A DNA stretch of 36,480 nucleotides from a bacterium. GTDB lineage: Bacteria > Desulfobacterota > GWC2-55-46 > DRQE01. Positions within the stretch are counted from its first letter, which is position 1, and every line of letters begins with the position of its first letter. Of the stretch, positions 3,391 through 33,480 are shown piece by piece. Below the pieces are notes generated by a model. It ran no database searches and had not been told where the DNA came from. It saw nothing but the letters and a program-made list of their open reading frames with translations. The DNA lies in contig JALUQR010000049.1 of the NCBI GenBank assembly GCA_027017505.1, positions 1-36,480 of the forward strand. The letters are read 5' to 3'. A program made the position numbers and the translations under genes.

Positions 3391-4236
3391 ATGGGGTATC
3401 TGAGAACAGTAATATTCCTTGCGGCACTTACAGCGTTACTCATATTCCTTGGAGACCTTATAGGCGGTAGAGAGGGAGCCATAATAGGGCTGATCTTTGC
3501 TGGAATAATGAACTTTGGCTCCTACTGGTTCAGTGACAAGATAGTGCTTGCCATGTACGGTGCAAGGGAGGTTACAGAAAGCGAGGCACCAGAGCTCTAC
3601 CGCACGGTAAGGGAGCTTTCCCGGAGGGCGGGGCTACCCATGCCAAAGGTCTACATGATACACACCGAAACACCCAACGCCTTCGCAACAGGCAGAAACC
3701 CCGAGCATTCTGCGGTGGCTGTAACAAGCGGTATAATGAGGCTTCTTTCAAGAGAGGAGCTTGCAGGCGTTATAGCCCATGAACTAAGCCACATAAAAAA
3801 CCGTGATGTGCTGATTTCCACCATCGCTGCAACCATTGCAGGTGCAATAAGCTATCTCTCGCACATGGCACTGTGGTTCTCCATGTTCGGCGGAAGGGAC
3901 AACAGAGAGGGTGCAAACCCCTTTGTGCTCCTGGTTATGCTCATAATAGCTCCCATAGCAGCACTCCTCATACAGATGGCCATATCAAGGTCAAGGGAGT
4001 TTGTTGCAGACAAGGATGGTGCCCAGATAGTGGGCAACCCCCTTTACCTTGCGGATGCACTGCGCAAGCTGGGCTACTACAACAGGCGCATACCCATGCA
4101 CGATGTTAACGAGGCAACCGCACATATGTTCATAGTAAGCCCGCTCAGTGGCGATACCATGATGAAGCTGTTCAGCACACACCCACCCCTTGAAGAAAGG
4201 ATAAAGAGGCTCGAGGCAATGGCACTCTCAAGATAA
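3391..4236 (+). CDS. htpX: M48-family zinc metalloprotease HtpX
   Basis: 281 aa with N-terminal TM helices, [20 protein letters not shown], the HELSH zinc motif ([11 protein letters not shown]), two further TM helices, and C-terminal [11 protein letters not shown]. Collinear with the HtpX family throughout. Confidence 0.92.
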
Positions 4237-4266
4237 AAGCTGTGTACAGTTCAGGTAAGTCCTTCT

Positions 4267-4310
4267 GCCAGGGGCATCTTCCCTGAAGATGCCCCTGGCT
4301 TTTTTCTTTC
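4267..4310 (+). terminator. rho-independent terminator downstream of htpX
   Basis: Perfect inverted repeat GCCAGGGGCATCTTC / GAAGATGCCCCTGGC (4267-4281 and 4285-4299) with a 3-nt loop, followed directly by TTTTTTCTTTC. Confidence 0.8.
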
Positions 4311-4313
4311 AAA

Positions 4314-4342
4314 TGGTCTTTTGCGGGGTGTTCTGGTATACT
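4314..4342 (+). promoter_or_regulatory. weak candidate promoter (extended -10) for the FAD oxidoreductase gene
   Basis: TGgTATACT extended -10 at 4334-4342. The -35 at 4314-4319 is poor (TGGTCT). Located between the htpX terminator and the AGGAGGG SD at 4367-4373. Confidence 0.3.
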
Positions 4343-4378
4343 CTTACGGGATGAACCCCTTATCAAGAGGAGGGCCCT

Positions 4379-5713
4379 GTGAGGGAATACGATGTGATAA
4401 TAGTGGGTGCAGGCCCTGCGGGCATATTCTGTGCATACGAGCTTTCAAAAAACGGGGGGCTTAAGGTGCTCATCCTTGAGAAGGGCGGAGACCTTCCTGA
4501 AAGAAAAAGGGAGGAGCTCTTCAGTGGCTGGGGTGGTGCAGGTGCGTTCAGCGATGGCAAGCTGAATCTGTCCGCAGAGGTGGGTGGTTTCCTCAAGGAG
4601 TATATTGAAGAACCCCTTCTCAATGAGCTTATAGACTATGTGGATGGCCTATTTGTGAGCATGGGGGCTCCCTCAGAGCTTAAGGGCACAGACCAGAGAG
4701 AGCTCAAACACATCGAGGAGGCATCCGCACGGGTGGGGCTTAAGTTCATACCCTTCAGGATAAGACACATAGGCACAGACCGCTGTATAGAGGTGCTTAA
4801 AAACTTAAGGGATGCACTCTCTGGCAGGGTTGATATGGCCTTCCACAGAGATGCAGAGGAGGTGCTGACAGACCATAAGGGGCTCTGGAGGGTAAGGTGC
4901 AGGGGTGGAGAGGAGTACATGGCCACTTTTGTTGTGCTTGCCCCTGGAAGAAGCGGGGCAGGCTGGCTTGAAGGGGTTGCAAAGGCACTGGGACTTTCCA
5001 CTGCAATAAACCCCGTGGATGTGGGCGTAAGGGTTGAGGTGCCAGCATCCGTGTTAAGCCACATAACTGATATTGCACACGAGGCAAAGTTCGTCTACAC
5101 ATCCCGGCTCTTTGACGACCAGGTAAGAACCTTCTGCATGAACCCCCACGGAGTGGTGGTAAGGGAAAGACACCGTGGTTTCTACACCGTTAATGGACAC
5201 AGCTACAGCCACAGGCTTACTGAAAACACCAACTTTGCAATCCTTGTGTCCACCACATTTACCGAGCCATTTCACGAGCCCCATACCTACGGCAGATACC
5301 TTGCAGGGCTTGCAAACCTTCTTGGTGGAGACATACTGCTCCAGAGGCTTGGAGACCTGAGGGGTGGAAGACGCTCCACCCCTGAAAGGATAAGGCGCAA
5401 TCCCCTCAGGCCAACCCTTGAGGATGCAACCCCTGGAGACCTCTCATTTGTGCTACCCTACAGGTGCCTTACCGATATACTTGAGATGCTCGAGACCCTT
5501 GATAAGATTGCCCCTGGAGTGAATGCAACGAGCACGCTCCTTTACGGGGTGGAGGTGAAGTTCTACTCCTTAAGGCTCAAGCTTTCAGAGAGGCTTGAGA
5601 CAGAGCGGAAAAACCTCTTTGCAGCAGGCGACGGGGCAGGCATAACAAGGGGTATAGTGCAGTCTGCAGTGTCAGGGATTGTTACAGCAAGGAGCATACT
5701 TGAGAGGGTTTGA
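4379..5713 (+). CDS. FAD-dependent oxidoreductase (COG2509-like uncharacterised FAD/NAD dehydrogenase)
   Basis: 444 aa with a GTG start and a strong SD. N-terminal Rossmann dinucleotide motif DVIIVGAGPAGIFCA..L......V.ILEKG, C-terminal AAGDGAG.TRGI motif, and overall COG2509-like length and layout. Confidence 0.8.
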   Translation: MREYDVIIVGAGPAGIFCAYELSKNGGLKVLILEKGGDLPERKREELFSGWGGAGAFSDGKLNLSAEVGGFLKEYIEEPLLNELIDYVDGLFVSMGAPSELKGTDQRELKHIEEASARVGLKFIPFRIRHIGTDRCIEVLKNLRDALSGRVDMAFHRDAEEVLTDHKGLWRVRCRGGEEYMATFVVLAPGRSGAGWLEGVAKALGLSTAINPVDVGVRVEVPASVLSHITDIAHEAKFVYTSRLFDDQVRTFCMNPHGVVVRERHRGFYTVNGHSYSHRLTENTNFAILVSTTFTEPFHEPHTYGRYLAGLANLLGGDILLQRLGDLRGGRRSTPERIRRNPLRPTLEDATPGDLSFVLPYRCLTDILEMLETLDKIAPGVNATSTLLYGVEVKFYSLRLKLSERLETERKNLFAAGDGAGITRGIVQSAVSGIVTARSILERV

Positions 5714-5717
5714 GCAT

Positions 5718-6452
5718 ATGGGAGATTTCAGATATGTGGACATAGTGCTCGTTGAGCCCCAGGGTGCCCATAACATGGGTAGCTGTGCGAGGGTTCTAAA
5801 GAACACGGGGTTTGAAAACCTCGTGCTTGTAAACCCCGCAGAGTTCAGAAACGATGATGCCTATTCCATGGCCTGCAAGGCAAAGGACCTTCTGCTTAAG
5901 GCACGGGTCTGTAAAGACATAGATGAGGCACTCAGGGATGTAAGGTTCGTTGCAGGTACCACCAGAAGAAGGGGTAAACTGCGTGAGCCACTTCTCACCA
6001 TGGACGAGGCCCTGCCAGTAATCTACGACAGAAGCCGTAAGAACAGGGTCGCAATACTTTTCGGCAGGGAAGACAGAGGGCTTGAAAACCCCGTGCTTGC
6101 CCGCTGTGATATACTGTTTGAGATACCCTCGGATGACGCCTATCCATCGCTTAATCTTTCGCATGCGGTGATGGTGGTCTGCCATAATCTTTTCATGATG
6201 AGTGGAAAAAGGCCAGAACACGCAATAGTTGCCTGCAGTAGAGAGGATGTGGAAAGGATGTACGAACACCTTGAGAGGGTGCTGAGAATGCTTGGCTACG
6301 GAGACCCTGACAGAAAGGGCGAATTCCTTCTTGAAAGTGTAATGAGGAACTTCCGCAAGCTCTTTGGCAGAACCTCGCTTATGAAAAAAGAGGTGAACAT
6401 GATAAGGGGAATACTTACAAGGATAGAGAAGAGATGTCAGGAAGGGGATTGA
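5718..6452 (+). CDS. trmJ: SpoU/TrmH-class RNA 2'-O-methyltransferase, TrmJ-like
   Basis: IVLVEPQGAHNMGSCARVLKNTGFENLVLVNP is close to the TrmJ N-terminus, and ILFGREDRGL......C......IP......SLNLSHAV is the SPOUT knot motif. The track ORF starts at 5679 and overlaps the upstream gene. ATG 5718 (MGDFRYVDIVLVEP) fits the family N-terminus better. Confidence 0.7.
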   Translation: MGDFRYVDIVLVEPQGAHNMGSCARVLKNTGFENLVLVNPAEFRNDDAYSMACKAKDLLLKARVCKDIDEALRDVRFVAGTTRRRGKLREPLLTMDEALPVIYDRSRKNRVAILFGREDRGLENPVLARCDILFEIPSDDAYPSLNLSHAVMVVCHNLFMMSGKRPEHAIVACSREDVERMYEHLERVLRMLGYGDPDRKGEFLLESVMRNFRKLFGRTSLMKKEVNMIRGILTRIEKRCQEGD

Positions 6453-6964
6453 CCCTGTGAGTGTTTTTTCCTTTCAAGCCTTAAAAAGAGGTTGTCGGGC
6501 TCACTGTCGCGTATCTTTCTTAACTCCACACCGAGCACAAGCAGTGCCAGTATGGTGAGCACCACACCCGCATAGAATAGCACCAGAACCTTTACACCAC
6601 CCAGCACACCCTCTATGGTGTTGAAGGAGGGAAAGAGCTTAAGATAGCTTGTTCTTATGGTGTCGCCTTTGTTGACACGCTCGAAGAACTCCCTTGCAAC
6701 CATACGCTCGTCCCTGATGGTGTTGCCCTGGCTGTCCTTGAAGGAATAAACTATGGTGTAGACCACACCCCTTCGCATAAATCTGTCTGCCCGTTTTTCA
6801 AGCACAGTGCCCTCGGTGTGCACACCAAACTTTTCGGGCAGTACCATATAGGATGCAAAGTAGCTTCCCACAATAAGATGCAGGAGGGCTGTTGTGAGAA
6901 AAAATCCACCCCAGTGGATGGTGAAAAATGCCCGAAGAAACTTTGAAATCCTAAACCCCTCCAT
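6437..6964 (-). CDS. DUF3592-like membrane protein (TM - beta-rich domain - TM)
   Basis: Hydrophobic helix FFLTTALLHLIVGSYFASYMVL, then HTEGTVLEK...VVYTIVYSFKDSQGNTIRDE.......GDTIRTSYLKLFP, then a second helix VLVLFYAGVVLTILALLVLGV. This is the DUF3592 pattern as I recall it. The start is taken at the internal Met (MEGFRISK, 6964). The track start at 7003 would overlap the divergent gene. Confidence 0.55.
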   Translation of the reverse strand: MEGFRISKFLRAFFTIHWGGFFLTTALLHLIVGSYFASYMVLPEKFGVHTEGTVLEKRADRFMRRGVVYTIVYSFKDSQGNTIRDERMVAREFFERVNKGDTIRTSYLKLFPSFNTIEGVLGGVKVLVLFYAGVVLTILALLVLGVELRKIRDSEPDNLFLRLERKKHSQGQSPS

Positions 6965-7030
6965 GATAGAATCAATTATAATACATGGCAGATGTGGAAT
7001 CAATTCAAAAGGGTTTTTGAGGGTTACTCC

Positions 7031-8128
7031 ATGGCAGACTGTCTTTTCTGTACAAAGAGCTCATCCCTTATAGCAGAGGTGCTGGGGGTATGTGCGGATT
7101 GCATAAGAGCTGGCAGGCAGGAGGTGCTTGACCACATAAGAAGGGTTCACAGGACCACAAGGGCCTTAAGCGGGCTTCCTGAAGAGCCTCCAGAGGATGA
7201 AGGTGGACTGCCCTGCAGACTCTGTGTGAATGGCTGTGTTATAGGAGAGGGTAGAAGGGGCTACTGCGGGGTAAGGGTTAACAGCGATGGCAGACTCTGT
7301 GAAGGGGGCAACCTTACATGGTATTACGATGCACTGCCCACAAACTGTGTTGCAGGATGGTTCTGCCCTGCAACCACGGGGTGTGGATACCCCAGATACG
7401 CACTGAAAGAGGACGGCGAGTGGGGCTACAGAAACCTTGCGGTATTCTACAACGGATGCAGTTTCGATTGCCTGTTCTGCCAGAACTGGCAGTGGAAAAA
7501 AGGAGTATTCGAAAAACACCACATAAGAAGCGAAGAGCTTGCCAGCTGTGTGGACGAGAGGACAACCTGTATATGCTTTTTTGGAGGAGACCCCACCCCG
7601 CAGATACCCCATGCTCTTAAAACCTGCGAGATAGCCCAGAGGATAAAAAAACTGCCTGTGCTCAGGATATGCTGGGAGACCAACGGCTCCATGGATAAGG
7701 CCCTGTGCGTTAAGATGATGGAGACAGCCCTCCGTACAGGTGGCATCGTTAAGTTCGACCTCAAGGCCTACTCAGAAGCACTCCACATTGCACTTACAGG
7801 TGTGACCAACAGAAGGACCCTTGAGAACTTCTTACGGGCTGGAGAACTTCTTGAGAGGCGAAAAGAACCACCCCCTCTTACAGCAAGCACCCTTCTTGTG
7901 CCAGGCTATGTGGATGCAGAAGAGGTTGAGGCCATAGCCCGATTCATGGCAGACATAGACCCCACAATACCCTATTCTCTCCTTGCCTTCTATCCCGCAC
8001 ACCACCTTAAAGACCTTCCACCAACCTCACGCAAACACGCTGAAAGATGCAAAGATGTGGCCCTTGCCCAGGGGCTTAAAAGGGTCAATGTGGGTAACAC
8101 ACACCTTCTGGGAGACTACTACGACTGA
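7031..8128 (+). CDS. radical SAM protein (PflA/AmmeMemoRadiSam-related, COG1180-like) with an N-terminal Cys-rich region
   Basis: CxxxCxxC radical-SAM cluster motif GCSFDCLFCQNW. Upstream are Cys-rich segments (CLFC...CADC, CRLCVNGC...GYCGVR), and a FFGGDPTP glycine-rich SAM motif is present. Start taken at MADCLFC (7031); the track start is 6992. Confidence 0.8.
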   Translation: MADCLFCTKSSSLIAEVLGVCADCIRAGRQEVLDHIRRVHRTTRALSGLPEEPPEDEGGLPCRLCVNGCVIGEGRRGYCGVRVNSDGRLCEGGNLTWYYDALPTNCVAGWFCPATTGCGYPRYALKEDGEWGYRNLAVFYNGCSFDCLFCQNWQWKKGVFEKHHIRSEELASCVDERTTCICFFGGDPTPQIPHALKTCEIAQRIKKLPVLRICWETNGSMDKALCVKMMETALRTGGIVKFDLKAYSEALHIALTGVTNRRTLENFLRAGELLERRKEPPPLTASTLLVPGYVDAEEVEAIARFMADIDPTIPYSLLAFYPAHHLKDLPPTSRKHAERCKDVALAQGLKRVNVGNTHLLGDYYD

Positions 8129-8229
8129 AAACCCCTTCCCACAGACCACAATACCCCTCTGTAACCCCCGCGTGTAAACCAGACTCCCGAATTTTGCCCA
8201 TATTTTCTGGCAAACCCCTGCTTTTGGTC

Positions 8230-8258
8230 TTGACATGCAATGTAAATGGTGGTAAAAA
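8230..8258 (+). promoter_or_regulatory. candidate sigma70-type promoter (extended -10) for the eCIS operon
   Basis: Perfect TTGACA (8230-8235), 17-nt spacer, TGgTAAAAA extended -10 (8250-8258). It lies about 110 nt upstream of the first eCIS gene, in an AT-rich 243-nt intergenic region. Confidence 0.35.
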
Positions 8259-8370
8259 CTTTTAAAACTTTGCTTAACCATATTCACCAATAGATTATTT
8301 TTTAAATAATTGTGGTGCTGGCAGGGTCTGTATCAGCCACCAGCCTTTTTTAAGGAAGGTTGGGTTCGGG

Positions 8371-8973
8371 ATGATAAAGGAAGCCCTTTCTCTTATAAGG
8401 GATGAGCTCAACGCATTTCTTGCAAGGAAGGAGCCCAGGTACAGGGGCAGGCAGACAGCCCTGCTTTCAGACATTGTTGACCAGCAGGGTGAGCTGGTAA
8501 TAACCCGCAACGATGACACCAAGCGGGACAACATAATAATAACCCTTGTCAATGTGGAGGAAGAGACCACGGGCAAGGCACAGCTTCCCTATCTTAAGAA
8601 TCCGGACAATTCTCTGGACATAATAAATCCCGAGATAAAGATAAACCTTTATGTGCTCTTCAGTGCCTTCTCAAACATGGACGAGAAGGAAAGGTATGCC
8701 AACTGTCTGGGGCTTTTATCAAGGGTGGTGGGTTTCTTTCAGCAGAAACCTGTCTTCACCCACAGCAATTCTCCAGGGCTTGACCCGGGCATAGACAGGC
8801 TCATAGCAGAGCTCATCTCCCTTAACCTTGAACAGGAGAACCACCTGTGGGGAGCCCTGGGGGCAAAGCTTCTTCCCCATGTGCTCTACAGGATACGCAT
8901 GCTCACCATAAGAGAGGTGGAGGACGCCCCAACAGCTCCGTTCATAAAGGAGATAAGGGTGGAAAAACTGTAA
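8371..8973 (+). CDS. DUF4255 / Pvc16_N-domain protein (Afp16/Pvc16-like tail terminator or cap of eCIS)
   Basis: 200 aa. N-terminus MIKEALSLIRDELNAFL, then ...LVNVEEE and ...INLYVLFSA...Y...L.LLS.V..FFQ..PVF. This is the DUF4255 pattern that marks eCIS loci. It is the first gene of the co-directional cluster. Confidence 0.8.
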   Translation: MIKEALSLIRDELNAFLARKEPRYRGRQTALLSDIVDQQGELVITRNDDTKRDNIIITLVNVEEETTGKAQLPYLKNPDNSLDIINPEIKINLYVLFSAFSNMDEKERYANCLGLLSRVVGFFQQKPVFTHSNSPGLDPGIDRLIAELISLNLEQENHLWGALGAKLLPHVLYRIRMLTIREVEDAPTAPFIKEIRVEKL

Positions 8974-8983
8974 GAGAAAGGCT

Positions 8984-10027
8984 ATGGGCTATTATTTTGG
9001 CACAATCTTTACCATAGAGTTTCTCCACTCCTATTATAAAAACAGGCTGTGTTCCGGGCTGACACTCAAGCCCACCGAAGAATGCCAGAGGGTTCTTCAG
9101 CAACACAGGATGTTTTTCAAGGAAACCCCCAGAGGGGGACTTGTTGTGGGTGAGCTCAAAAAAGAAGGCGACAGCCTCAAGCCATCTGTGAAGATAAAAG
9201 AGGATACAAGCTTTGTCTTCAGAGTGCTTCTTGACAACCCCTTCTTCTGGAACATAACAGATGTGGACCTTCAGAAGGTCAGGCCCTCAACGGTCTTCCT
9301 GTTTGAAAACACCGATACATCCTCAATTGATGCAAGTGGAACGATTACCATCCACAGGGGAAGGCTTTCAGAGCCCGTAAGGGTGTCTGATAAACTCGTC
9401 AGGTACAGCCTTGAGGGGCTGGATGTGGCAACCCTCTTTGTATACGACAGAAAGGAGCGTGTTGTCTTCGGCACCATAGTGAAGCCAGAGGAAGACGCAC
9501 TCACAGTAGATATGACAGGACATCCCGAAGGACTCTACAGGATAAAGGCCTACAGCAGTTCAGGTGCCATGCTGAAAGATGACAAGGTGTTTGTAACAAG
9601 CTCTGCAACAGAGCCCACACCCTTTGGCTTCGTGGTGGTAAGGTTCACCCCGAGTATACTGAGCGATGACAGGGCTGAATACACATTCAGGGTGGAGTTC
9701 TCCTCAAGGGAGATAAACTGGACATACAGGATAAACCTTAAAAACTCGGGAGGCCTTCATCCCATAGATGTATCCAAACTCAAGATAGTAAGGGCACCCG
9801 TGAGGTTTTCAAAAAGGGTGTCAGGCACAGGGGCAGAAAGGCTCGTGGAATTTACATCCGAAAGCCCCATAGAGCTTAAGGAAGAACCCTACAGGGATAT
9901 AAAACTCGTCGAACAGGAGGGAGACAGAGAAGAGGTTATCATAAAAAACCTGCCCAACCCTGACATACACAGGCTGGAGAAGGACGAAAGGGGGCTTAAG
10001 TCCATAATATATCTAACAATCAAATAA
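8984..10027 (+). CDS. hypothetical protein, eCIS-embedded (function unknown)
   Basis: 347-aa ORF, 10 nt after the DUF4255 gene and 13 nt before the sheath gene. Codon usage matches its neighbours and no competing ORF is present. I recognise no family motif. The sequence is beta-rich (e.g. LYRIKAYSSSGAMLKDDKVFVTS). Confidence 0.7.
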   Translation: MGYYFGTIFTIEFLHSYYKNRLCSGLTLKPTEECQRVLQQHRMFFKETPRGGLVVGELKKEGDSLKPSVKIKEDTSFVFRVLLDNPFFWNITDVDLQKVRPSTVFLFENTDTSSIDASGTITIHRGRLSEPVRVSDKLVRYSLEGLDVATLFVYDRKERVVFGTIVKPEEDALTVDMTGHPEGLYRIKAYSSSGAMLKDDKVFVTSSATEPTPFGFVVVRFTPSILSDDRAEYTFRVEFSSREINWTYRINLKNSGGLHPIDVSKLKIVRAPVRFSKRVSGTGAERLVEFTSESPIELKEEPYRDIKLVEQEGDREEVIIKNLPNPDIHRLEKDERGLKSIIYLTIK

Positions 10028-25987: not shown

Positions 25988-27529
25988 ATGCTCTCGGTGG
26001 ACAGAACACATAGGATACACAGCATTCTGTTTCATGTTATAACCCCCGGTCTCGAAGAGGCAAGAAGGGCAGAAGAGGCCATAGGCAGGTTCTGTAAAGA
26101 AGAGCTTCCAGAAGTTCTCCAGGAGGTGCTGGGTCTTTACGACAGGGAGGATAAGGTGGTCAGTATAGAACGCATAGAGCTTGAGCTCGGAACCCTGCAG
26201 GCTGGTGAGCTTACAGAAAGGCTTAAAGAGGCTATCTGTGCAGGGCTTAAAGAGTTCTTTGAAGAAAACCACACACTCATACAATCCACAGACAGGTGGA
26301 GGCCTTCAGATAGAGGGTTCAGCGAAGGGGAGAGCAACATAAAACTCTATAGCCCATCTGTGCGTCTTATGGCACAGCTTGAAGAGTTCCTCTTTTCAGG
26401 CACACTGCCCTGGAACAGTAAAGAAACAGCCTTCACTGACATGGACAGCCTTGTTACAGGGCTTTTCAGGGAGTCTCCCCGTGAAATGGAAGCCCTTCTA
26501 AGAAGGGCTGTATCCAGAGAACACGCCCTTAAAAGGCTTGTATTCAACCTGAAAGAGGAAAGCCTTGAGATGATAATATCCAGGTGTCTGGGACTGGCAG
26601 AAGAAGACCTCATGGATATACTCACGGTCATAAAAGATGTATGCAGGGTTATGGAAAGATACGGTCTTAAAGAGAAGGGCTTTTTTCTATACACATCGCT
26701 TCTTAAGAGCATTGCACGGTACAGATGGCTCGACAGGGAGAGACTCTTTGAGGTATGGCTTGAGGACACACTTAAAGAGACCCTTAAAACCATGTCCAAA
26801 GAAGAGCTCAGGGCATTTGTAAAAGAGTGTGGGCTTCTGAAGCCTGAAAAGACAACCCCTCTTTATTTTCGCCTAAGGATGTATCTTGAAGAGACAGGAA
26901 GGAGTGGCACCACTCCACAGAGTATATCCAGCCCTGCTGAGAGGGGGCACACCGTGGAGGCCTTCTTTGAGGCACTGGATGAACCCAGGGATACAGAAGG
27001 GCTGACACCCTTTAAGCCCGAGACCCGTGAGGAGCAGTGGTTTGTAAAAAACAGCGGGGTGGTGCTTCTGTGGCCGTATCTTGAGAGCTACTTTGAGAGG
27101 CTTAAGCTTGTAAAAAGGGGAAGCTTTGTTTCCGAATCTCACAGGCTTCAGGCGGTTGCAGAGCTTGAGTATCTTGCAAGGGGAGATACAGATTACATGG
27201 AGTATCATCTGGTACTCAACAAGGTGCTCTGCGGTATGGAGCTTGAGGTGGCTGTTGAGCCAGGGTTCAGAAAGCCCCCCATTGATAAAAAAGAGGCAGA
27301 GTGTTTGCTACGCCATGCAATAGATAACTGGAAGAAGATAGGCAGAACCTCTGTGGATGGGTTCAGAAGGGCATTCCTCATGCGCGATGGCAAACTCTCA
27401 GGGACAGAGGCAGGCTGGACACTGCTTGTGGAAAGGAAGGGTTATGATGTGTTGCTCGATTATCTGCCCTATCCACTGGGGGTGGTGAAACTGCCATGGA
27501 TGAAGAACGCACTGTATGTAGAATGGTAG
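25988..27529 (+). CDS. contractile injection system tape-measure (tail-length determination) protein (Afp14/Pvc14 equivalent)
   Basis: 513 aa. The N-terminal pattern H.I......V..........A....F....LP.VL.EVL........V.SIERIELELG.L..GEL.ERL and the C-terminal FVKNSGVVLLWPYLESYFERL.LV both resemble the eCIS tape-measure family. Its position immediately before the AAA+ ATPase is canonical. Confidence 0.65.
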   Translation: MLSVDRTHRIHSILFHVITPGLEEARRAEEAIGRFCKEELPEVLQEVLGLYDREDKVVSIERIELELGTLQAGELTERLKEAICAGLKEFFEENHTLIQSTDRWRPSDRGFSEGESNIKLYSPSVRLMAQLEEFLFSGTLPWNSKETAFTDMDSLVTGLFRESPREMEALLRRAVSREHALKRLVFNLKEESLEMIISRCLGLAEEDLMDILTVIKDVCRVMERYGLKEKGFFLYTSLLKSIARYRWLDRERLFEVWLEDTLKETLKTMSKEELRAFVKECGLLKPEKTTPLYFRLRMYLEETGRSGTTPQSISSPAERGHTVEAFFEALDEPRDTEGLTPFKPETREEQWFVKNSGVVLLWPYLESYFERLKLVKRGSFVSESHRLQAVAELEYLARGDTDYMEYHLVLNKVLCGMELEVAVEPGFRKPPIDKKEAECLLRHAIDNWKKIGRTSVDGFRRAFLMRDGKLSGTEAGWTLLVERKGYDVLLDYLPYPLGVVKLPWMKNALYVEW

Positions 27530-28839
27530 AGCCGTATTACAGATACAATGCAAGACACCTTATGGCAGAGTTTGCCTGGCTCAAGGAGGTGGTCAGAGCC
27601 CGTTACAGGCTGTACCATGGAAAGGAGACCACCTGCAGGGATGTGCTGGAGATACCACCTCCATCGCTGAACGGTTGCGGTTCACTCTACAGTGAGGTTG
27701 TAAGGGGTTACAGGCTCACGCCAGAGGAAAGGCTTGTGCTTGTTCTTGCCCTTTACCCGCACATACATCCTGCCCTGCTCGATGAATTTTTTAACCCTGG
27801 AGACCGGCCCCAGAGAAGACTTCCACCGATTCCAACTGTGGATACTGCGCTGTTTCTGCTTGCAGGAGATGAGCTTGAAAAGAGGTTCCATTACTATTAC
27901 CTTTTTGAGCCCCACAGCGTTCTCATAAAAGAGGGCATTATAGAGCTTGAGAAGGACCATACCACAGGGACGCTTCTTGACGCAAGGCTTGTTCCCTCTC
28001 AGGAGGTACTCTCGCTGTTTACAACAGGAAGAATCCATCCACCCCAGTACGGTCATGAGTTTCCAGCCCAGAGGATTACCACAGAGCTTGAGTGGAAAGA
28101 CCTGGTTCTTCCACCACAGACGATGGCACAGGTGGAAGAAATAAAGATATGGATTAAACACGGCAGGACACTTCTTTACCAGTGGGGACTTAAAAAGAAG
28201 ATAGCCCCTGGCTACAGGTGTCTCTTCTACGGGCCTCCTGGCACTGGAAAGACACTTACTGCAATGCTCATAGGCAAGGAGACAGGCATAGATGTCTACA
28301 GGATAGACCTCTCTCTTGTGGTCTCAAAGTTCATAGGAGAGACGGAAAAGAACCTCAAAAAGATATTCGATACCGCCCGTGACAGAGACTGGATACTCTT
28401 TTTTGACGAGGCGGATGCCCTCTTTACAAAGAGAACAGAGGTTCAGACATCTCACGACAGGTTCAGCAACCAGGAGATAGCCTATCTGCTCCACCGTGTG
28501 GAGGAACATCCAGGTGTGGTGATACTTGCAACCAACAGGAAGAGCAATCTTGATGAGGCGTTCTTGAGAAGATTCCAGAACATGATAGAGTTTCCCATGC
28601 CAACAAAACAGGAGCGACTCAGGATATGGCAGAACGGGTTTTCAAAGAGCTCGGTGCTCGAGAAGGGGATAGACCTTGAGGAGCTTGCAGAAAGGTACGA
28701 GCTTACAGGCGCATCCATAATGAATGTGGTGAGATACGCCTCGCTCATGGCACTTAACGAGGGGAGCAATGTTATAAGGGCTTCGCATATATTGAAGGGT
28801 ATAGAGAAGGAGTACACAAAAGAAGGGAGAACTATCTGA
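27523..28839 (+). CDS. AAA+ ATPase (Afp15/Pvc15 equivalent, single AAA module)
   Basis: Walker A GPPGTGKT (nt 28231-28254), Walker B ILFFDEADALF, sensor/Arg-finger region ILATNR...LDEAFLRRF. The N-terminal region of about 200 aa belongs to no family I recognise. ATG 27523 overlaps the tape-measure stop (ATGGTAG); the track start is 27496. Confidence 0.9.
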   Translation: MVEPYYRYNARHLMAEFAWLKEVVRARYRLYHGKETTCRDVLEIPPPSLNGCGSLYSEVVRGYRLTPEERLVLVLALYPHIHPALLDEFFNPGDRPQRRLPPIPTVDTALFLLAGDELEKRFHYYYLFEPHSVLIKEGIIELEKDHTTGTLLDARLVPSQEVLSLFTTGRIHPPQYGHEFPAQRITTELEWKDLVLPPQTMAQVEEIKIWIKHGRTLLYQWGLKKKIAPGYRCLFYGPPGTGKTLTAMLIGKETGIDVYRIDLSLVVSKFIGETEKNLKKIFDTARDRDWILFFDEADALFTKRTEVQTSHDRFSNQEIAYLLHRVEEHPGVVILATNRKSNLDEAFLRRFQNMIEFPMPTKQERLRIWQNGFSKSSVLEKGIDLEELAERYELTGASIMNVVRYASLMALNEGSNVIRASHILKGIEKEYTKEGRTI

Positions 28840-31800
28840 TGGGCTTTCTTTCAGGCACAAAGGATTCAAAGACTGGTTCTTCTGCGCAGAACACCACCCC
28901 ATGCCAGCTTCAGACGATACTGAGAACATCCAGAAGGGATGACCCTTCAGAGATAGAGGCAGATAGAATCGCAGAAAGGATAACAGCAAAGACCACAGAG
29001 GAGGAACTCACAGGGCCTGCCCTGAAAGTTGCGGATGAACAACCAGAGGAGCTTAAGCCCAGGGAGAACGAGGAGGAAGAGAGCCTTCAGCGACAGAGCG
29101 AAGAAGATGAGCCAGAAGAGGCAGATGTGGACATGCAGGAAGAGGAAGACGGGATTATTCAGGGAAAGGCTGTATCCACAGAGGGCATAAAGGACCCGCA
29201 GGTAAGAGAGCTTCTCAGGACAGGCAGGGGTGCTGGTAGCCCCATGGAGCCAGGGCTTGCCCGCCAGATGGAGGGCCATTTTGGAAGAAGTTTTTCGGAT
29301 GTGCGCATACATACAGATTCAACCGCGGTAAGGCTCTGCGAGCTCCTTGGTGCAAGGGCATTCACCTACGGGCAGGATATATACTTCAGCGAGGGTGCAT
29401 ACCAGCCCGATACAAGGGAGGGCAGAAAGCTCATCGCACATGAGCTCACCCATGTGGTACAGCAACGAAGGGGTGCAAAGACGATACAGAGACAGTCAGA
29501 ACGCACAAACCAGAAAAAGCCCGTGGATGCAACAAAACTCAGCGAAAGAGATGGAAGACTCGTAAGAGGCACTGACAGAGACAGAATATTCTTCGATAAG
29601 ATAGAGGTGCCAGGGTTCAAGCTGAAGGATTACAGAGAACACCTCTATAAGAGCCGTTACCCGCTTATACATAGCAAGGGCTACAAAAGGGGAAATCCAA
29701 GACAGCGTGATGTATGGCAGAAAAGCGTGAATAAGGAAAAAATAATGAGAAGGATAAGAGAGGTTCTACAGCGTGGATACAGAAGTGATTCCATAAATGA
29801 TAACGAAACCCACCTTGTAAAGGTGCCCGTACGGGGAGAAAGGGCATCCCTATACTATTCTGGAACCATAGCTGAGATTGCAGATAGACTCACCATTCCA
29901 GAATGGGGCGGTATGTCCCTGAGGCCACCTTACAGATTCTTCCATGTGGACCACATCGTTGAGCTTCAGCTTGCAAACTGGAATAACGATAGGTGGGCAA
30001 ATACTCCTGCAAACATGGAGCTTCTTGAGGCAGGTTTCAACATGGCATCTGGCAGTATCATAAAGAACAAGATTAACGAAAAGGTCAGGCATTTTCTCAA
30101 TGTTACGAAGGGGCCTGACGGAAGGTCTCCCTACGGTAGAAGTATAAAGGATATAAAAAAGAACTATGAGCTTGTCTTCAGAAAGGCGGAGCCACTGAGT
30201 GAATACAGGAATGTAGCACGCACCAGATTCTGGAAGAAGGATGAGATAGAAAACGCCAGCCATCTCAGGCCATTGAGACCTGCCCTGCTATCTGAACTTG
30301 GCGGAAACGGATATGTGAGGATATTCCCCTCCGAGACAGGAGGCCTTGGCATGCGTTTCAGGTGGCCAGAGGAGGTTCCATCCCGTTCCAGAGAAAGGGG
30401 ATGGCTTAAAAGCCCCTTCCAGATAAAACAGAAACACTTCAACACAAAGGATGAAGATGTAACCTCTCATGAGTTTGGCCACTTTGTTGTAAATATAGAG
30501 CCCAACCACAGCGTGTTTGAGGGGCTAAGGGGCGGTGACTTCAGAATCCCCATCTTAAGGTTCGGAGGCGCACAGTTTGCAGGCCACATAGAGAAGACAT
30601 CTGTGTTGAGAATGCTTCACAGACTCAAGATAAAGAGAACCAGCCCCATAGCGGTGGATACCTTCCACATTCATGGGAAAAGAGGAATAATACTTCAGGG
30701 CAGAATACTGCCAGAGGTTCCCCTGTTCAGGGATGCGGACATAAGGTTTTCTCTTGAAAACGGGGATTTCACCCTTTCAAAGACATTTACGATAGACGAG
30801 ATAACCCTTCCCCCACCGTTCAGTGTATCCACTGTAACGCTTACTCTTTTTGGAAGCACAAGAAGGGGTATAGGGATTGATGGCAGGATTGAGTTTGCCA
30901 TAAAGGGGCTTGGTGAGGGATACATCGCAGGGGTTGCTACCACCTCGCAGAGTCTGGAGCTTGAGGGCGAATTCAACTTCGATTCCAGGTTGTTTGACCC
31001 TGCAGTGGTAAGTGTTAGTTACAGGAACAGAACACTCACTGCAGAGGGTGAACTCGGCATACCCCAGGGGAAGCTCAGGGGTATAAAGAGTGCAAACATA
31101 AGGGTGCTCTATTCGGAAAGCGAGGGCAGGCTCACAGCAAGTGGCACCGCAGAGCTTAACATACCAGGGGTAAGAAGTGCGATGGTAAATGTGCTCTACA
31201 CAGGGGAGAGCTTCACCGTAGAGGGCACCGCAGAGCTCAAAGATGACATACCTGGCATAAGGGGTGGTAGCGTTACGGTGAGGGTGCAGAAGGAGGGTGA
31301 GGAATCAGGCTACAGGCTCTATGCAAGGGGCGAGGCCATACCCAGCATACCTGGCATAGATGCAAAGCTCGGTGTGGAATACAACGACGGAGCCATTACC
31401 ATACACGGCAGGGTTGGCTACAGAAAGGGCATGCTCTCTGGAGAGGTGGATGTAACCGTATCTAACAGAAGGGTAGATGAAGAGGGCAATCCCACAGATG
31501 AGCTCACAGACAGGCTCACACTCTACGGTGGTGGTGAGCTCACCGTACAGTTTACACGCTGGCTGAAGGGCACCGCAGGGGTCAGGTTCCTGCCCACAGG
31601 CGAGCTTCAGGTCTCTGGCAGGATAGGTATACCCTCCACCGTGGAGGTATTCGGAAGAAAGGCCATACCAGAAAGAGACCTCTTCAGGCTTGGTTTTGAT
31701 ATACCCATATTTGCCATACCGGTCGGGCCAAAGAGTATAGGGCTTGTTGCAACCATAAGGGGAGCCCTGAGGGCATACGCTGGAATAGGGCCTGGAAGGC

Positions 31801-32324
31801 TTGAGGAGCTTGAGCTCAGCGTGGTGTACACCCCAACGAGGGAGGAGGATACAAGGATAAGTGGAAGGGGCAAGTTCATTATACCCGCAGATGCAGGGCT
31901 GAAACTTGCGATAAGTGCAAGTGTGGGAGTTTCAGCGGTGATTGGAGGTGCAGAGGGTGGTTTTGAGATTGCAGGGGGTATAAAACTCTCTGCAAAGGCA
32001 GACGCATCGGTCAATGTGAACTGGACACCCTCCACAGGGATTGAACTTAACGCAAGGCTCTCTGCAGGAGTGGAGCCAAAGTTCACATTCGATATAGAAG
32101 GTTTCGTAAGGGCATGGGCATTAGGCCTGGAGAAAAGAAAAGGCTGGAACCTCGTAAGCTACGAATACGGCTCGAATATGCGGTTCGGAGTATACCTGCC
32201 AATAAGATACAGGGAAGGAGAACCCTTCGATATATCCTTTGAGGATATAAGGTTTGAAAGACCACAGATAAGTGAGGGCTTTCTTAAAGGGCTGATTCGT
32301 GATATAAAGAACAAAAACAGCTGA
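28839..32324 (+). CDS. DUF4157 (zincin-like HExxH) domain protein with a long uncharacterised C-terminal extension; candidate eCIS cargo or effector
   Basis: 1161 aa. The start ATG shares one base with the ATPase stop (TGATG). Residues about 133-212, GSPMEPGLARQMEGHFGRSFSDVRIHTDSTAVRLCELLGARAFTYGQDIYFSEGAYQPDTREGRKLIAHELTHVVQQ, are a textbook DUF4157 domain. The HELTH motif lies at nt 29439-29453. An upstream DPSEIEADRIAERI motif and an acidic low-complexity stretch are also typical. Confidence 0.85.
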   Translation: MGFLSGTKDSKTGSSAQNTTPCQLQTILRTSRRDDPSEIEADRIAERITAKTTEEELTGPALKVADEQPEELKPRENEEEESLQRQSEEDEPEEADVDMQEEEDGIIQGKAVSTEGIKDPQVRELLRTGRGAGSPMEPGLARQMEGHFGRSFSDVRIHTDSTAVRLCELLGARAFTYGQDIYFSEGAYQPDTREGRKLIAHELTHVVQQRRGAKTIQRQSERTNQKKPVDATKLSERDGRLVRGTDRDRIFFDKIEVPGFKLKDYREHLYKSRYPLIHSKGYKRGNPRQRDVWQKSVNKEKIMRRIREVLQRGYRSDSINDNETHLVKVPVRGERASLYYSGTIAEIADRLTIPEWGGMSLRPPYRFFHVDHIVELQLANWNNDRWANTPANMELLEAGFNMASGSIIKNKINEKVRHFLNVTKGPDGRSPYGRSIKDIKKNYELVFRKAEPLSEYRNVARTRFWKKDEIENASHLRPLRPALLSELGGNGYVRIFPSETGGLGMRFRWPEEVPSRSRERGWLKSPFQIKQKHFNTKDEDVTSHEFGHFVVNIEPNHSVFEGLRGGDFRIPILRFGGAQFAGHIEKTSVLRMLHRLKIKRTSPIAVDTFHIHGKRGIILQGRILPEVPLFRDADIRFSLENGDFTLSKTFTIDEITLPPPFSVSTVTLTLFGSTRRGIGIDGRIEFAIKGLGEGYIAGVATTSQSLELEGEFNFDSRLFDPAVVSVSYRNRTLTAEGELGIPQGKLRGIKSANIRVLYSESEGRLTASGTAELNIPGVRSAMVNVLYTGESFTVEGTAELKDDIPGIRGGSVTVRVQKEGEESGYRLYARGEAIPSIPGIDAKLGVEYNDGAITIHGRVGYRKGMLSGEVDVTVSNRRVDEEGNPTDELTDRLTLYGGGELTVQFTRWLKGTAGVRFLPTGELQVSGRIGIPSTVEVFGRKAIPERDLFRLGFDIPIFAIPVGPKSIGLVATIRGALRAYAGIGPGRLEELELSVVYTPTREEDTRISGRGKFIIPADAGLKLAISASVGVSAVIGGAEGGFEIAGGIKLSAKADASVNVNWTPSTGIELNARLSAGVEPKFTFDIEGFVRAWALGLEKRKGWNLVSYEYGSNMRFGVYLPIRYREGEPFDISFEDIRFERPQISEGFLKGLIRDIKNKNS

Positions 32325-32340
32325 CCATGGAAACAGTGTC

Positions 32341-33315
32341 ATGAAGAAAGACCCAAGGGAGATAAACAACAGGGGTGTGGAGCTCTTCCTGAAGGGAGAT
32401 ATTACCGGAGCAAGAAGGCTATACGAAGAGGCCCTCAGGCTTGATGAACGCAATGTGAGTGCCCTTAACAACCTGGGCTATACATACACCATGGAGGGTA
32501 ACTATGATAGGGCAATAGAGTGTTTTCACAGGGCCCTTCAGATAGAGCCCCGCAATGCCACTGCCCTGCTCAACATGGGGGTTACCCTTGCCAACAAGGG
32601 AGAGCTTGAAAAGGGCCTGGGGTATCTGCAAAGAAGCGTTGAGGTCGCCCCTGACAGTGAACCTGCCTGGCAGAGCATGGCAGGGCTGTTCCAGCTTCTC
32701 TCGCTCTATCCCGAGGCTGAAAAGGCGTGGCGTGAGGCTGTAAGGTGTAACCCAGAAAACAGGGATAACCTCTACAACCTGGGCGTGGTGCTTGCGGTAC
32801 AGAAAAAGTACGATGAGGCCATCGTTACATTCAACGAGCTTCTATCGCAGAATCCAGACGATACAGAAAGCCTCTGCCAGCTCGGTATAATCCACATGAT
32901 GCGTCATGACCTGGGGCTTGCAACCGAGACCTTCAGAAGGGTGCTTGCCGTAAAACCCGAGCATGAGTCCGCAAGATATCACCTTGCACTCACACTCGCA
33001 TCAAAGGGAGATGTGGAGGGCGCAAAAAAAGAGCTCGAAAGGCTTCTCCTTATAAACCCTGCCAACACAAAGGCAGAGATAGACCTTGCGGTCTTTGAGA
33101 TGGGCCTGGGCAATAAAGAGACCGCACTTGAACACCTCGAAGAGGTGCTCAAAAGAGAGCCAGAAAACACAAAGGCACTCTTCTACAAGGCAATAGTCCT
33201 CTATAACAGCGGAAAGAAAAAGAAGGCAGAAAGGATTCTCAAGGAGCTCAGCACAGGAAAGGACGAATACTCCTTAAAGGCAAGGGAACTTCTGGAAAAA
33301 GAGCTTAAGGACTGA
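32341..33315 (+). CDS. tetratricopeptide-repeat (TPR) protein
   Basis: 324 aa made of about eight consecutive 34-residue units with the A..Y..AL..DP.N..AL.NLG....G.Y..AI pattern (e.g. ALNNLGYTYTMEGNYDRAIECFHRALQIEPRNATALLNMGV). It starts 16 nt after the DUF4157 gene on the same strand. Confidence 0.85.
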   Translation: MKKDPREINNRGVELFLKGDITGARRLYEEALRLDERNVSALNNLGYTYTMEGNYDRAIECFHRALQIEPRNATALLNMGVTLANKGELEKGLGYLQRSVEVAPDSEPAWQSMAGLFQLLSLYPEAEKAWREAVRCNPENRDNLYNLGVVLAVQKKYDEAIVTFNELLSQNPDDTESLCQLGIIHMMRHDLGLATETFRRVLAVKPEHESARYHLALTLASKGDVEGAKKELERLLLINPANTKAEIDLAVFEMGLGNKETALEHLEEVLKREPENTKALFYKAIVLYNSGKKKKAERILKELSTGKDEYSLKARELLEKELKD

Positions 33316-33450: not shown

Positions 33451-33480
33451 TTGCCATTCACCGTGGATACAGGCTATAAT
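33451..33480 (+). promoter_or_regulatory. candidate sigma70-type promoter for uvrA
   Basis: TTGCCA (33451-33456), 18-nt spacer, perfect TATAAT (33475-33480). GGAGGA at 33494-33499 and ATG at 33512. Confidence 0.45.

Follow-up and report, generated by a model that had tools for sequence, protein, structure and literature searches.

What is a protein of 1161 amino acids (aa) for, when its gene begins on the stop codon of an AAA+ ATPase gene near the end of an extracellular contractile injection system (eCIS) operon: is it delivered to other cells, does it process what is delivered, or does it belong to the particle itself? This question is raised by a 36,480-nucleotide stretch of bacterial DNA (contig JALUQR010000049.1 of assembly GCA_027017505.1, forward strand), hereafter called the window, by which we mean the whole stretch analyzed. 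The original prediction, made from the sequence letters only, had proposed the product of the open reading frame (ORF) at 28839-32324 as a candidate cargo or processing factor with a DUF4157 zincin domain, and this ORF could be reproduced. We found that the protein is almost certainly an ortholog of Cgo2 (ALPR1_12690), a cargo protein of AlgoCIS, the eCIS of Algoriphagus machipongonensis. As such, it is very likely a luminal cargo of its own system.

Relationship to the AlgoCIS cargo protein Cgo2

Among 5.8 billion proteins searched, 947 relatives of the window protein were found. The best 120 of these are spread over Bacteroidota, Beta- and Gammaproteobacteria, Planctomycetota, Bipolaricaulota and other groups, and nearly all of them are 1100-1300 aa long and cover 85-100% of the query at 26-62% identity. 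BLASTP aligned residues 3-1158 of the window protein with residues 4-1224 of a 1228-aa protein of A. machipongonensis (P0161; P and L numbers are our handles for proteins and loci) at 34% identity and 625 bits. On its contig, this protein has as neighbours a 1443-aa PKD protein, CIS_TMP, a 498-aa DUF4157 protein, a 289-aa tetratricopeptide repeat (TPR) protein and a 435-aa AAA protein. The published lengths of the AlgoCIS cargo proteins are 498 aa for Cgo1 and 1228 aa for Cgo2 (10.64898/2026.05.27.728243), and P0161 was taken to be Cgo2 because lengths and neighbours agree with the published pair. Besides full-length homology, the window protein and Cgo2 have the same order of modules, namely the N-terminal motif with an acidic linker, DUF4157, a middle region with a D-H..N..N motif and a beta-rich C-terminal domain. 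This full architecture is retained in at least 330 full-length relatives from many phyla.

The exact sequence of the window protein has no record in public assemblies, and the protein search gave 100% identity for a 760-aa fragment (P0001) only. With the full protein as query, Pfam and PHROGs (E<=0.01) and NCBIfam (E<=0.1) gave nothing besides PF13699, and searches of PDB sequences with the single sequence and with a full-length profile gave no meaningful match. The earlier statement that some 950 residues belong to no nameable family therefore stands as far as direct library matches go, and falls short in that an HNH-type motif (aa 356-422) and a beta-sheet C-terminal domain can be recognized. 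For the known Cgo2 cargo family, of which the protein is a new member, the HNH-type motif, the beta-sheet domain and a TPR partner are newly described; the literature searched links Cgo2 with no HNH or nuclease motif, no TPR gene and no C-terminal domain that resembles a beta-barrel.

Much of what can be said about loading comes from published work on the ortholog. Both Cgo1 and Cgo2 were found by mass spectrometry in purified AlgoCIS particles and are unresolved in cryo-EM maps. About 96% of wild-type tubes are filled, compared with ~37-38% in each single mutant, and ~93% are empty in the Cgo1/Cgo2 double mutant, whose particles assemble normally with tubes that are just empty. The cargo density occupies the whole lumen, contracted particles are without cargo, and the two proteins load independently and show no two-hybrid interaction (PMC8894135). 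Loading requires the disordered N-terminal domain and can do without DUF4157 and the C-terminal domain; as a carrier, the N-terminal domain together with DUF4157 takes BlaM and Cre into particles but fails with GFP and mCherry; and deletion of Alg15 or a Walker B mutation abolishes loading of Cgo1 and Cgo2 and leaves assembly unaffected (10.64898/2026.05.27.728243). DUF4157 has been described as an eCIS core or marker domain of unknown role (Geller 2021; Danov 2024), with genetic linkage to a large number of eCIS toxins (Geller 2021), and the Pfam name of PF13699 is now eCIS_core ("eCIS core domain"). Metalloprotease biochemistry was found for no DUF4157 domain in the AlgoCIS/DUF4157 literature searched. 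Thus, the view that the role of DUF4157 is unresolved has to be narrowed, as localization and loading requirements are published for the Cgo proteins, and otherwise still holds.

Among the options left by the original prediction, that of a cargo is supported by the full-length homology to Cgo2 and by the N-terminal motif common to Cgo1 and Cgo2. A reading of the gene as a variable payload at this position was not borne out: the protein is among the most conserved accessory proteins, with a C-terminal half as conserved as DUF4157. Nor do the homologs lie mostly outside eCIS loci, since every resolved context is a CIS locus (Bacteroidota, Beta- and Gammaproteobacteria, Sphingomonadales and Bipolaricaulota). 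Left out of this statement is a 12.9-kb contig of an Allosphingosinicella metagenome-assembled genome (MAG; L008), where the Cgo2 homolog (3975-7859) has no eCIS neighbours by phmmer. The analogy drawn with Photorhabdus virulence cassettes (PVC) was found to be partial. Payloads such as Pnf and Pdp1 resemble the window protein in the position of their genes downstream of structural genes, and in a disordered N-terminal signal and a dependence on an AAA+ ATPase (Pvc15), both of which are presumed for the window protein. However, PVC cargos lack DUF4157 and have no N-terminal sequence similarity to the Cgo proteins, and the PVC cargo set varies by locus while the Cgo2 family does not.

Domain map of the Cgo2 family

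The N-terminal motif flagged earlier is present as DPSEIEADRIAERI at aa 35-48, inside a longer conserved motif (Table 1), and is the most conserved part of the family N-terminus, with D35, E38, E40, A41 and A45 each kept in at least 90% of family sequences. It is common to Cgo1, Cgo2, the window protein and the proteobacterial and Bipolaricaulota homologs, which makes it a candidate for the core of the packaging or loading signal. The acidic stretch, also noted before, follows at aa 51-130, with 27 D/E against 10 K/R and 78% disorder-promoting residues. In homologs, this linker is 0 to 360 aa long and holds many of the insertions; N-terminal disorder was judged from composition and length variability, with no dedicated predictor. 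The canonical DUF4157 domain is confirmed by a match to model positions 1-78 of 79 in PF13699, and takes up 6.7% of the protein, in keeping with the earlier estimate of less than 10%. Its HExxH motif is intact in all 330 full-length relatives, and H158 in 323 of them. Many other DUF4157 proteins in the genome scan align only over residues ~24-220. Motif, linker and DUF4157 therefore behave as a module joined to different C-terminal parts, the Cgo2 type being one. The same design is seen in eCIS-associated toxins, which likewise have a disordered, signal-like N-terminus followed by DUF4157 with HExxH and a gene at the operon 3' end. Their toxin domains are typically short and variable, while in the window protein the ~950 residues after DUF4157 form one conserved family.

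The middle region was modeled by AlphaFold2 (AF2) with high confidence, and Foldseek found no PDB neighbour for this model (best E 0.36), so that the HNH assignment was drawn from motif, profile and secondary structure. The motif segment reads W356...F-x-V-D371-H372-I-V-E-L-Q...N392-M-E-L-L...N401-x-S-S-G-S. Three of its residues, H372, N392 and N401, occur in every one of the 330 relatives, and D371 in 324 of them, with Glu in five and Gly in one of the others. In the AF2 model, a strand at 368-372 ends with D371-H372, and a second strand (393-397) is followed by a helix (398-422) at a local predicted local distance difference test (pLDDT) score of ~97. When 40 homolog segments were scanned singly with Pfam, 13 matched PF01844 HNH (best 1.7e-4) and eight GmrSD_C (PF07510), all below curated thresholds, and single segments also matched HNH_3, HNH_4 and HNH_5. 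The D-H..N..N residues align with positions that we take to be equivalent to D839, H840, N854 and N863 of Cas9. As in the HNH domains of Cas9, GmrSD and BrxU (PF07510, PF01844), D-H ends strand 1, one Asn precedes strand 2 and another lies in the next helix, and the spacing and the predicted beta-beta-alpha topology are those of HNH nucleases. Unlike these, the window motif is without Zn-binding cysteines and is set inside a ~385-aa domain that has no structural neighbour. On this evidence, the middle region very probably carries an HNH fold, and catalytic activity of its centre is plausible.

The C-terminal domain, for which AF2 predicts an all-beta amphipathic meander of ~30 strands with tight turns between them, is conserved on a par with DUF4157 and is the better conserved of the protein's two halves. 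The last strands are 19-28 residues long, and the longest are of sufficient length to span a bilayer. The alignment-averaged Kyte-Doolittle hydropathy has a mean of +1.8 for the hydrophobic face and -1.2 for the polar one. Three successive strands of 28 residues have hydrophobic faces that read IGGFIAALLIAVVA, GAGFIGILAAAVVW and ILALAVPFFIGVAA, their opposite faces being polar or charged. Upstream of these, tandem beta-hairpin repeats gave self-alignment scores of up to 56, whereas shuffled sequences reached no more than 45 (mean 22.8, sd 4.5). Foldseek related the C-terminal model to LptD (1e-5), the beta-belt of ApoB100, VDAC, porins, ushers and MTP, with probabilities of 0.98-1.0 for LptD, ApoB100 and VDAC. 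With LptD, VDAC/porins, ApoB100 and MTP, the model shares long antiparallel strands in an up-and-down arrangement, one face of which is hydrophobic. None of these structures superposes on it globally (template modeling (TM) score 0.15-0.30), and in the model the likeness to membrane barrels is one of local sheet geometry, not of overall shape. We do not claim membership in these families, from which the protein also differs in having no signal peptide (read by eye, with no predictor run) and a family consensus end that is non-aromatic. Overall, a membrane-active C-terminal domain is possible, and we hold it as a tentative assignment that is more doubtful than it is secure.

When this domain was used as a query against 1.84 billion representatives, 871, 633 and 436 matches were obtained at E 1e-3, 1e-10 and 1e-30, respectively. 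Among the relatives listed, the domain is always C-terminal; most of these proteins are 1150-1350 aa long and a few 2300-2600 aa. Kinship with phage ejection or tail proteins was considered and dropped, as Foldseek of the domain against the viral structures of BFVD gave no match (best E 7e-3, TM 0.12). Family variants of 2250-2630 aa were also observed (P0232, P0235, P0244, P0254, P0263, P0271, P0289 and P0301, as well as L021 9944-16789), in most of which the C-terminal domain is matched in two stretches or preceded by long insertions.

Proposed function and competing explanations

Taken together, we consider it probable that the window protein is a multidomain luminal cargo and effector of an AlgoCIS-like eCIS that is loaded by the ATPase and ejected. 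By analogy with experiments on the ortholog, the adjacent AAA+ ATPase, an ortholog of Alg15, would recognize the N-terminal motif and the acidic linker and feed the protein, at least partly unfolded, into the inner tube's lumen during assembly, and sheath contraction would expel the tube contents, this protein included, into or onto the target cell. Outside, two catalytic centres may act, the HExxH zincin and the HNH-type metal finger, the latter (Cas9/GmrSD-like) most plausibly as a nuclease. Because both centres are strictly conserved, which points to strict selection, they are probably active. The simplest reading would be a nuclease effector. An active nuclease toxin, a more specific claim, is a serious possibility to which we would give not quite an even chance. 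More speculatively, the C-terminal beta-sheet might engage lipid or membrane as a pore, translocon or lipid binder, which would help the enzymatic part to reach its substrate, and the TPR protein might hold an aggregation-prone cargo in the producer cell before loading.

Several observations weigh against such an effector. The cargo status derives from orthology at the level of identity given above, and in E. coli, growth inhibition was reported for Cgo1 alone, although Cgo2 was expressed as well (PMC8894135). This lack of reported toxicity of Cgo2 in E. coli speaks against a non-specific DNase that is constitutively active. The window protein's own segment gave no Pfam HNH match. The top four hits of a PDB profile search, three Cas9 HNH domains and BrxU, align on D-H..N..N with E of only 0.5-0.9, and an hhalign probability of 87% was obtained against an SpCas9 HNH segment of approximate sequence. 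The net charge of +27 in the middle region was rejected as support for DNA binding: this basic character is peculiar to the window protein (family median +1), whose C-terminal domain, moreover, is near neutral while that of the family is typically acidic. The global match to a closed barrel fails (rmsd 24-40 A) despite E values down to 1e-5. No immunity-like gene is evident in the window, unless the TPR protein serves as one. Finally, conservation this strong across phyla is atypical for toxin effectors and keeps a helper role alive.

This helper role is the content of the strongest competing explanation, in which the protein would be a conserved translocon or pore-former, a near-core helper cargo whose C-terminal sheet opens a membrane for itself or for co-cargo, with the HNH and zincin parts as accessories. 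The constant presence and the conservation of the C-terminal domain agree with this, as do its strongly amphipathic strands, three of which have wholly hydrophobic faces, and the fact that membrane barrels and lipid-binding beta-sheets are the sole structures close to it. Many loci (L001, L006, L010, L081 and L084) encode, alongside the Cgo2 family, a further DUF4157 protein that is variable, and toxicity is reported for Cgo1 only. The TPR partner recalls the TPR chaperones that serve type III secretion translocators. However, TM values of at most 0.3 fall short of a closed barrel, both enzyme motifs have catalytic residues that are invariant or nearly so and hence not decorative, a second cargo to be helped is lacking in the window, and Cgo1 and Cgo2 load independently with no two-hybrid interaction. 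We regard this explanation as unlikely on balance. Slightly less likely still is an extended scheme in which the protein would be a self-translocating, near-universal effector of AlgoCIS-like systems: the AAA+ ATPase would load it unfolded, the C-terminal sheet would refold spontaneously in the target membrane in the manner of outer-membrane proteins and beta pore-forming toxins, the resulting conduit or lesion would admit the HNH module and co-cargo, DUF4157 would cut the modules apart, and the TPR protein would be a dedicated chaperone in the producer.

The two other roles named in the original prediction fit less well. A cargo-processing or maturation protease, whose DUF4157 domain cleaves other cargo or itself at loading or after injection with the rest as a scaffold, would be in line with the invariant HExxH motif and with the genetic linkage of DUF4157 to many eCIS toxins (Geller 2021). 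Yet AlgoCIS particles with DUF4157 deleted still load Cgo1 and Cgo2, the toxicity of Cgo1 is independent of its HExxH motifs (PMC8894135), 950 conserved residues would be left unexplained, and in the window the target alone carries a packaging motif or DUF4157, which leaves no second protein of this kind to be processed. A protease acting in trans is thus unlikely, and we consider the protease explanation as a whole improbable. A structural component, that is, a lumen plug, length determinant or appendage that builds or stabilizes the particle, is the least probable of all, to the point of being hardly credible. It would account for conservation like that of a core gene, for the Bipolaricaulota locus that places the gene between ATPase and tube/spike genes, and for the cargo density that fills the entire AlgoCIS lumen. 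On the other side, AlgoCIS particles assemble without Cgo1 and Cgo2, a separate CIS_TMP tape-measure gene is present in the window, and the Cgo proteins are unresolved in cryo-EM maps.

For a genome scan, this locus is mostly ordinary, as it encodes an ortholog of a published cargo in a recognizable eCIS operon. Nevertheless, no accessory component of eCIS, systems that are being engineered for protein delivery, is more widespread than the DUF4157 proteins, and Cgo2 is the only characterized long DUF4157 protein. The domain map of the family, with two invariant or near-invariant catalytic motifs, a conserved amphipathic sheet and a TPR partner, provides concrete, testable targets and bears on the question of what a conserved eCIS cargo does after injection.

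Operon setting, gene order and the TPR partner

The TGA of the ATPase gene (28837-28839) and the ATG of the target gene (28839-28841) have one A in common in the context ACTATCTGATGGGC, and a GGGAG Shine-Dalgarno-like element lies ~9 nt 5' of the ATG. The overlap (TGATG) is as described earlier; the translational coupling read from it could be upheld only in part, because overlaps occur at 6 of the operon's 15 gene junctions and the feature was downgraded as specific evidence. The real evidence for a link to the ATPase is the conserved adjacency, a natural fusion and the published dependence on Alg15. AAA and Cgo2 genes are adjacent, often overlapping, in L003, L007, L086, L087, L088 and the window, and a metagenomic protein of 1801 aa (P0057; L082/L083 10001-15406) is a natural AAA::Cgo2 fusion, whose locus also encodes glycosyltransferases. 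The window ATPase matches the Alg15 ORF of AlgoCIS (L081 14649-15956) with a phmmer E value of 4e-118. Its annotated start overlaps the 3' end of the CIS_TMP gene by 34 nt (27496-27529), and the real start may lie further downstream.

The gene order differs among groups. Bacteroidota, including AlgoCIS, have fibre - TMP - (Cgo1-like) - Cgo2 - TPR - AAA, and several proteobacterial loci and the closest homolog have AAA - (DUF4157 protein) - Cgo2 - (TPR), where the stop codon of one gene often overlaps the start codon of the next. The window has TMP - AAA - Cgo2 - TPR, compared with TMP - Cgo1 - Cgo2 - TPR - AAA in AlgoCIS; it lacks a Cgo1-like second cargo, and its host is an uncultured Thermodesulfobacteriota-like bacterium whereas that of AlgoCIS belongs to Bacteroidota. 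Common to both loci are a cap adaptor, an Alg19-like protein, CIS_TMP, an Alg15-like AAA+ ATPase and a TPR gene directly after Cgo2. In a Bipolaricaulota MAG (L087 7589-15739), the order is Pvc16_N - AAA - 97-aa ORF - Cgo2 - 371-aa ORF - CIS_tube - VgrG..., which places Cgo2 in mid-operon, while in the other loci the gene is at the operon 3' end. In Vibrio and Sphingosinicella, the loci are CIS clusters of a divergent kind that contain gp25, Baseplate_J-like and DUF6519 genes. A Sphingomonadales locus (L026) with no phmmer neighbours was considered as a non-eCIS context and rejected as such, since Pfam shows Baseplate_J-like and DUF6519 upstream. In Aromatoleum petrolei (L084), a DUF4157 protein fused to an OmpA-like peptidoglycan-binding domain (7705-10020) is encoded between the ATPase and the Cgo2 homolog, and genes for a reverse transcriptase and a TIR-domain protein are found downstream.

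TPR orthologs are encoded directly 3' of the Cgo2 gene in 8 of 15 scanned loci (L001, L002, L004, L005, L007, L009, L081 and the window), spread over Bacteroidota, Gammaproteobacteria and the window. They are ~290-325 aa long and match with phmmer E values of 1e-27 to 1e-49, and stop/start overlap is frequent. Judging from this gene order, the TPR protein is a conserved partner of Cgo2 and could be a chaperone, an adaptor or an immunity factor. The gene is absent from the account given in the AlgoCIS paper (PMC8894135).

A complete eCIS operon extends from ~8371 to 33315 of the window, with the target at its 3' end (Table 1). It is of the AlgoCIS-like (subtype Ib-like) type, marked as such by the 7adz relative together with the short Pvc16_N cap. 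The 950-aa ORF before CIS_TMP is related to All3314 of the Anabaena thylakoid contractile injection system (tCIS) (7b5h, 5e-50) and to a 1443-aa PKD protein (9wt0, 4e-41); in the AlgoCIS locus, phmmer matches it to the 1443-aa Alg19 ORF (2e-43). Its probable role in the window system is that of a fibre or target-binding component.

Table 1. Features of the Cgo2-family gene, its operon and related TPR genes (nucleotide positions in the window; for loci with L numbers, positions in that locus; pTM, predicted TM score)
Feature	Position	Strand	Evidence or remark
Cgo2-family gene, putative eCIS cargo	28839..32324	+	ATG start, 1161 aa; BLASTP vs A. machipongonensis Cgo2
Conserved N-terminal motif Q.KL.V..P.D..E.EAD..A..V, aa 21-50	28899..28988	+	family alignment
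Acidic low-complexity linker, length-variable, presumed disordered, aa 51-130	28989..29228	+	composition
DUF4157/eCIS_core zincin, aa 135-212	29241..29474	+	PF13699 E 1.7e-31, 108.6 bits vs cutoff 22
HELTH (H201-E202-L-T-H205), aa 201-205	29439-29453	+	HExxH motif
Middle alpha/beta region, aa 216-600	29484..30638	+	AF2 pLDDT 93.4, pTM 0.88 (99-sequence alignment)
HNH-type beta-beta-alpha motif, aa 356-422: W356, D371-H372, E375, Q377, N392, N401	29904..30104	+	
All-beta amphipathic meander (predicted), aa 601-1150	30639..32288	+	AF2 pLDDT 88.9, pTM 0.66
Tandem beta-hairpin repeats, ~30 aa, aa ~700-880, ..V.V.Y....T..G.AEL.IPG..	30936..31478	+	self-alignment
Three successive 28-residue amphipathic strands, aa 1006-1033, 1036-1063, 1067-1094	31854..32120	+	
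AAA+ ATPase, Alg15/Pvc15-type cargo loader	27496..28839	+	Pfam AAA 3.7e-30, WHD, AAA_lid_3
Pvc16_N cap, short, 200 aa	8371-8973		
AlgoCIS-type cap adaptor-like ORF, 347 aa	8984-10027	+	no Pfam match; sole PDB relative 7adz, E 0.0034
Sheath, two gp19 tube proteins, CIS_tube, VgrG-like spike, PAAR, gp25	in window operon		
Baseplate J-like protein and TIGR02243-like protein	in window operon		
Alg19/All3314-like ORF, 950 aa	23128-25980	+	no Pfam match; PDB sequence search, phmmer
CIS_TMP tape-measure protein	25988-27529		Pfam
TPR protein, 324 aa, last operon gene	32341..33315	+	Pfam TPR families
TPR partner in L081	13697-14566		
TPR partner in L001	14798-15673		
TPR partner in L004	13486-14352		
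TPR partner in L005	3158-4126		
TPR partner in L007	13359-14270		

A 196-nt gap separates the TPR gene from uvrA. No terminator-like site was found on the plus strand of this gap, and a strong sigma-70-like promoter match (TTGCCA-18-TATAAT, 11/12) is located in it at 33451-33480 (+), which is consistent with an eCIS operon that ends at the TPR gene. The base composition is even over the whole window. The nearest named relatives of the window UvrA are from MAGs of Thermodesulfobacteriota ("Deltaproteobacteria"), at 64-69% identity.

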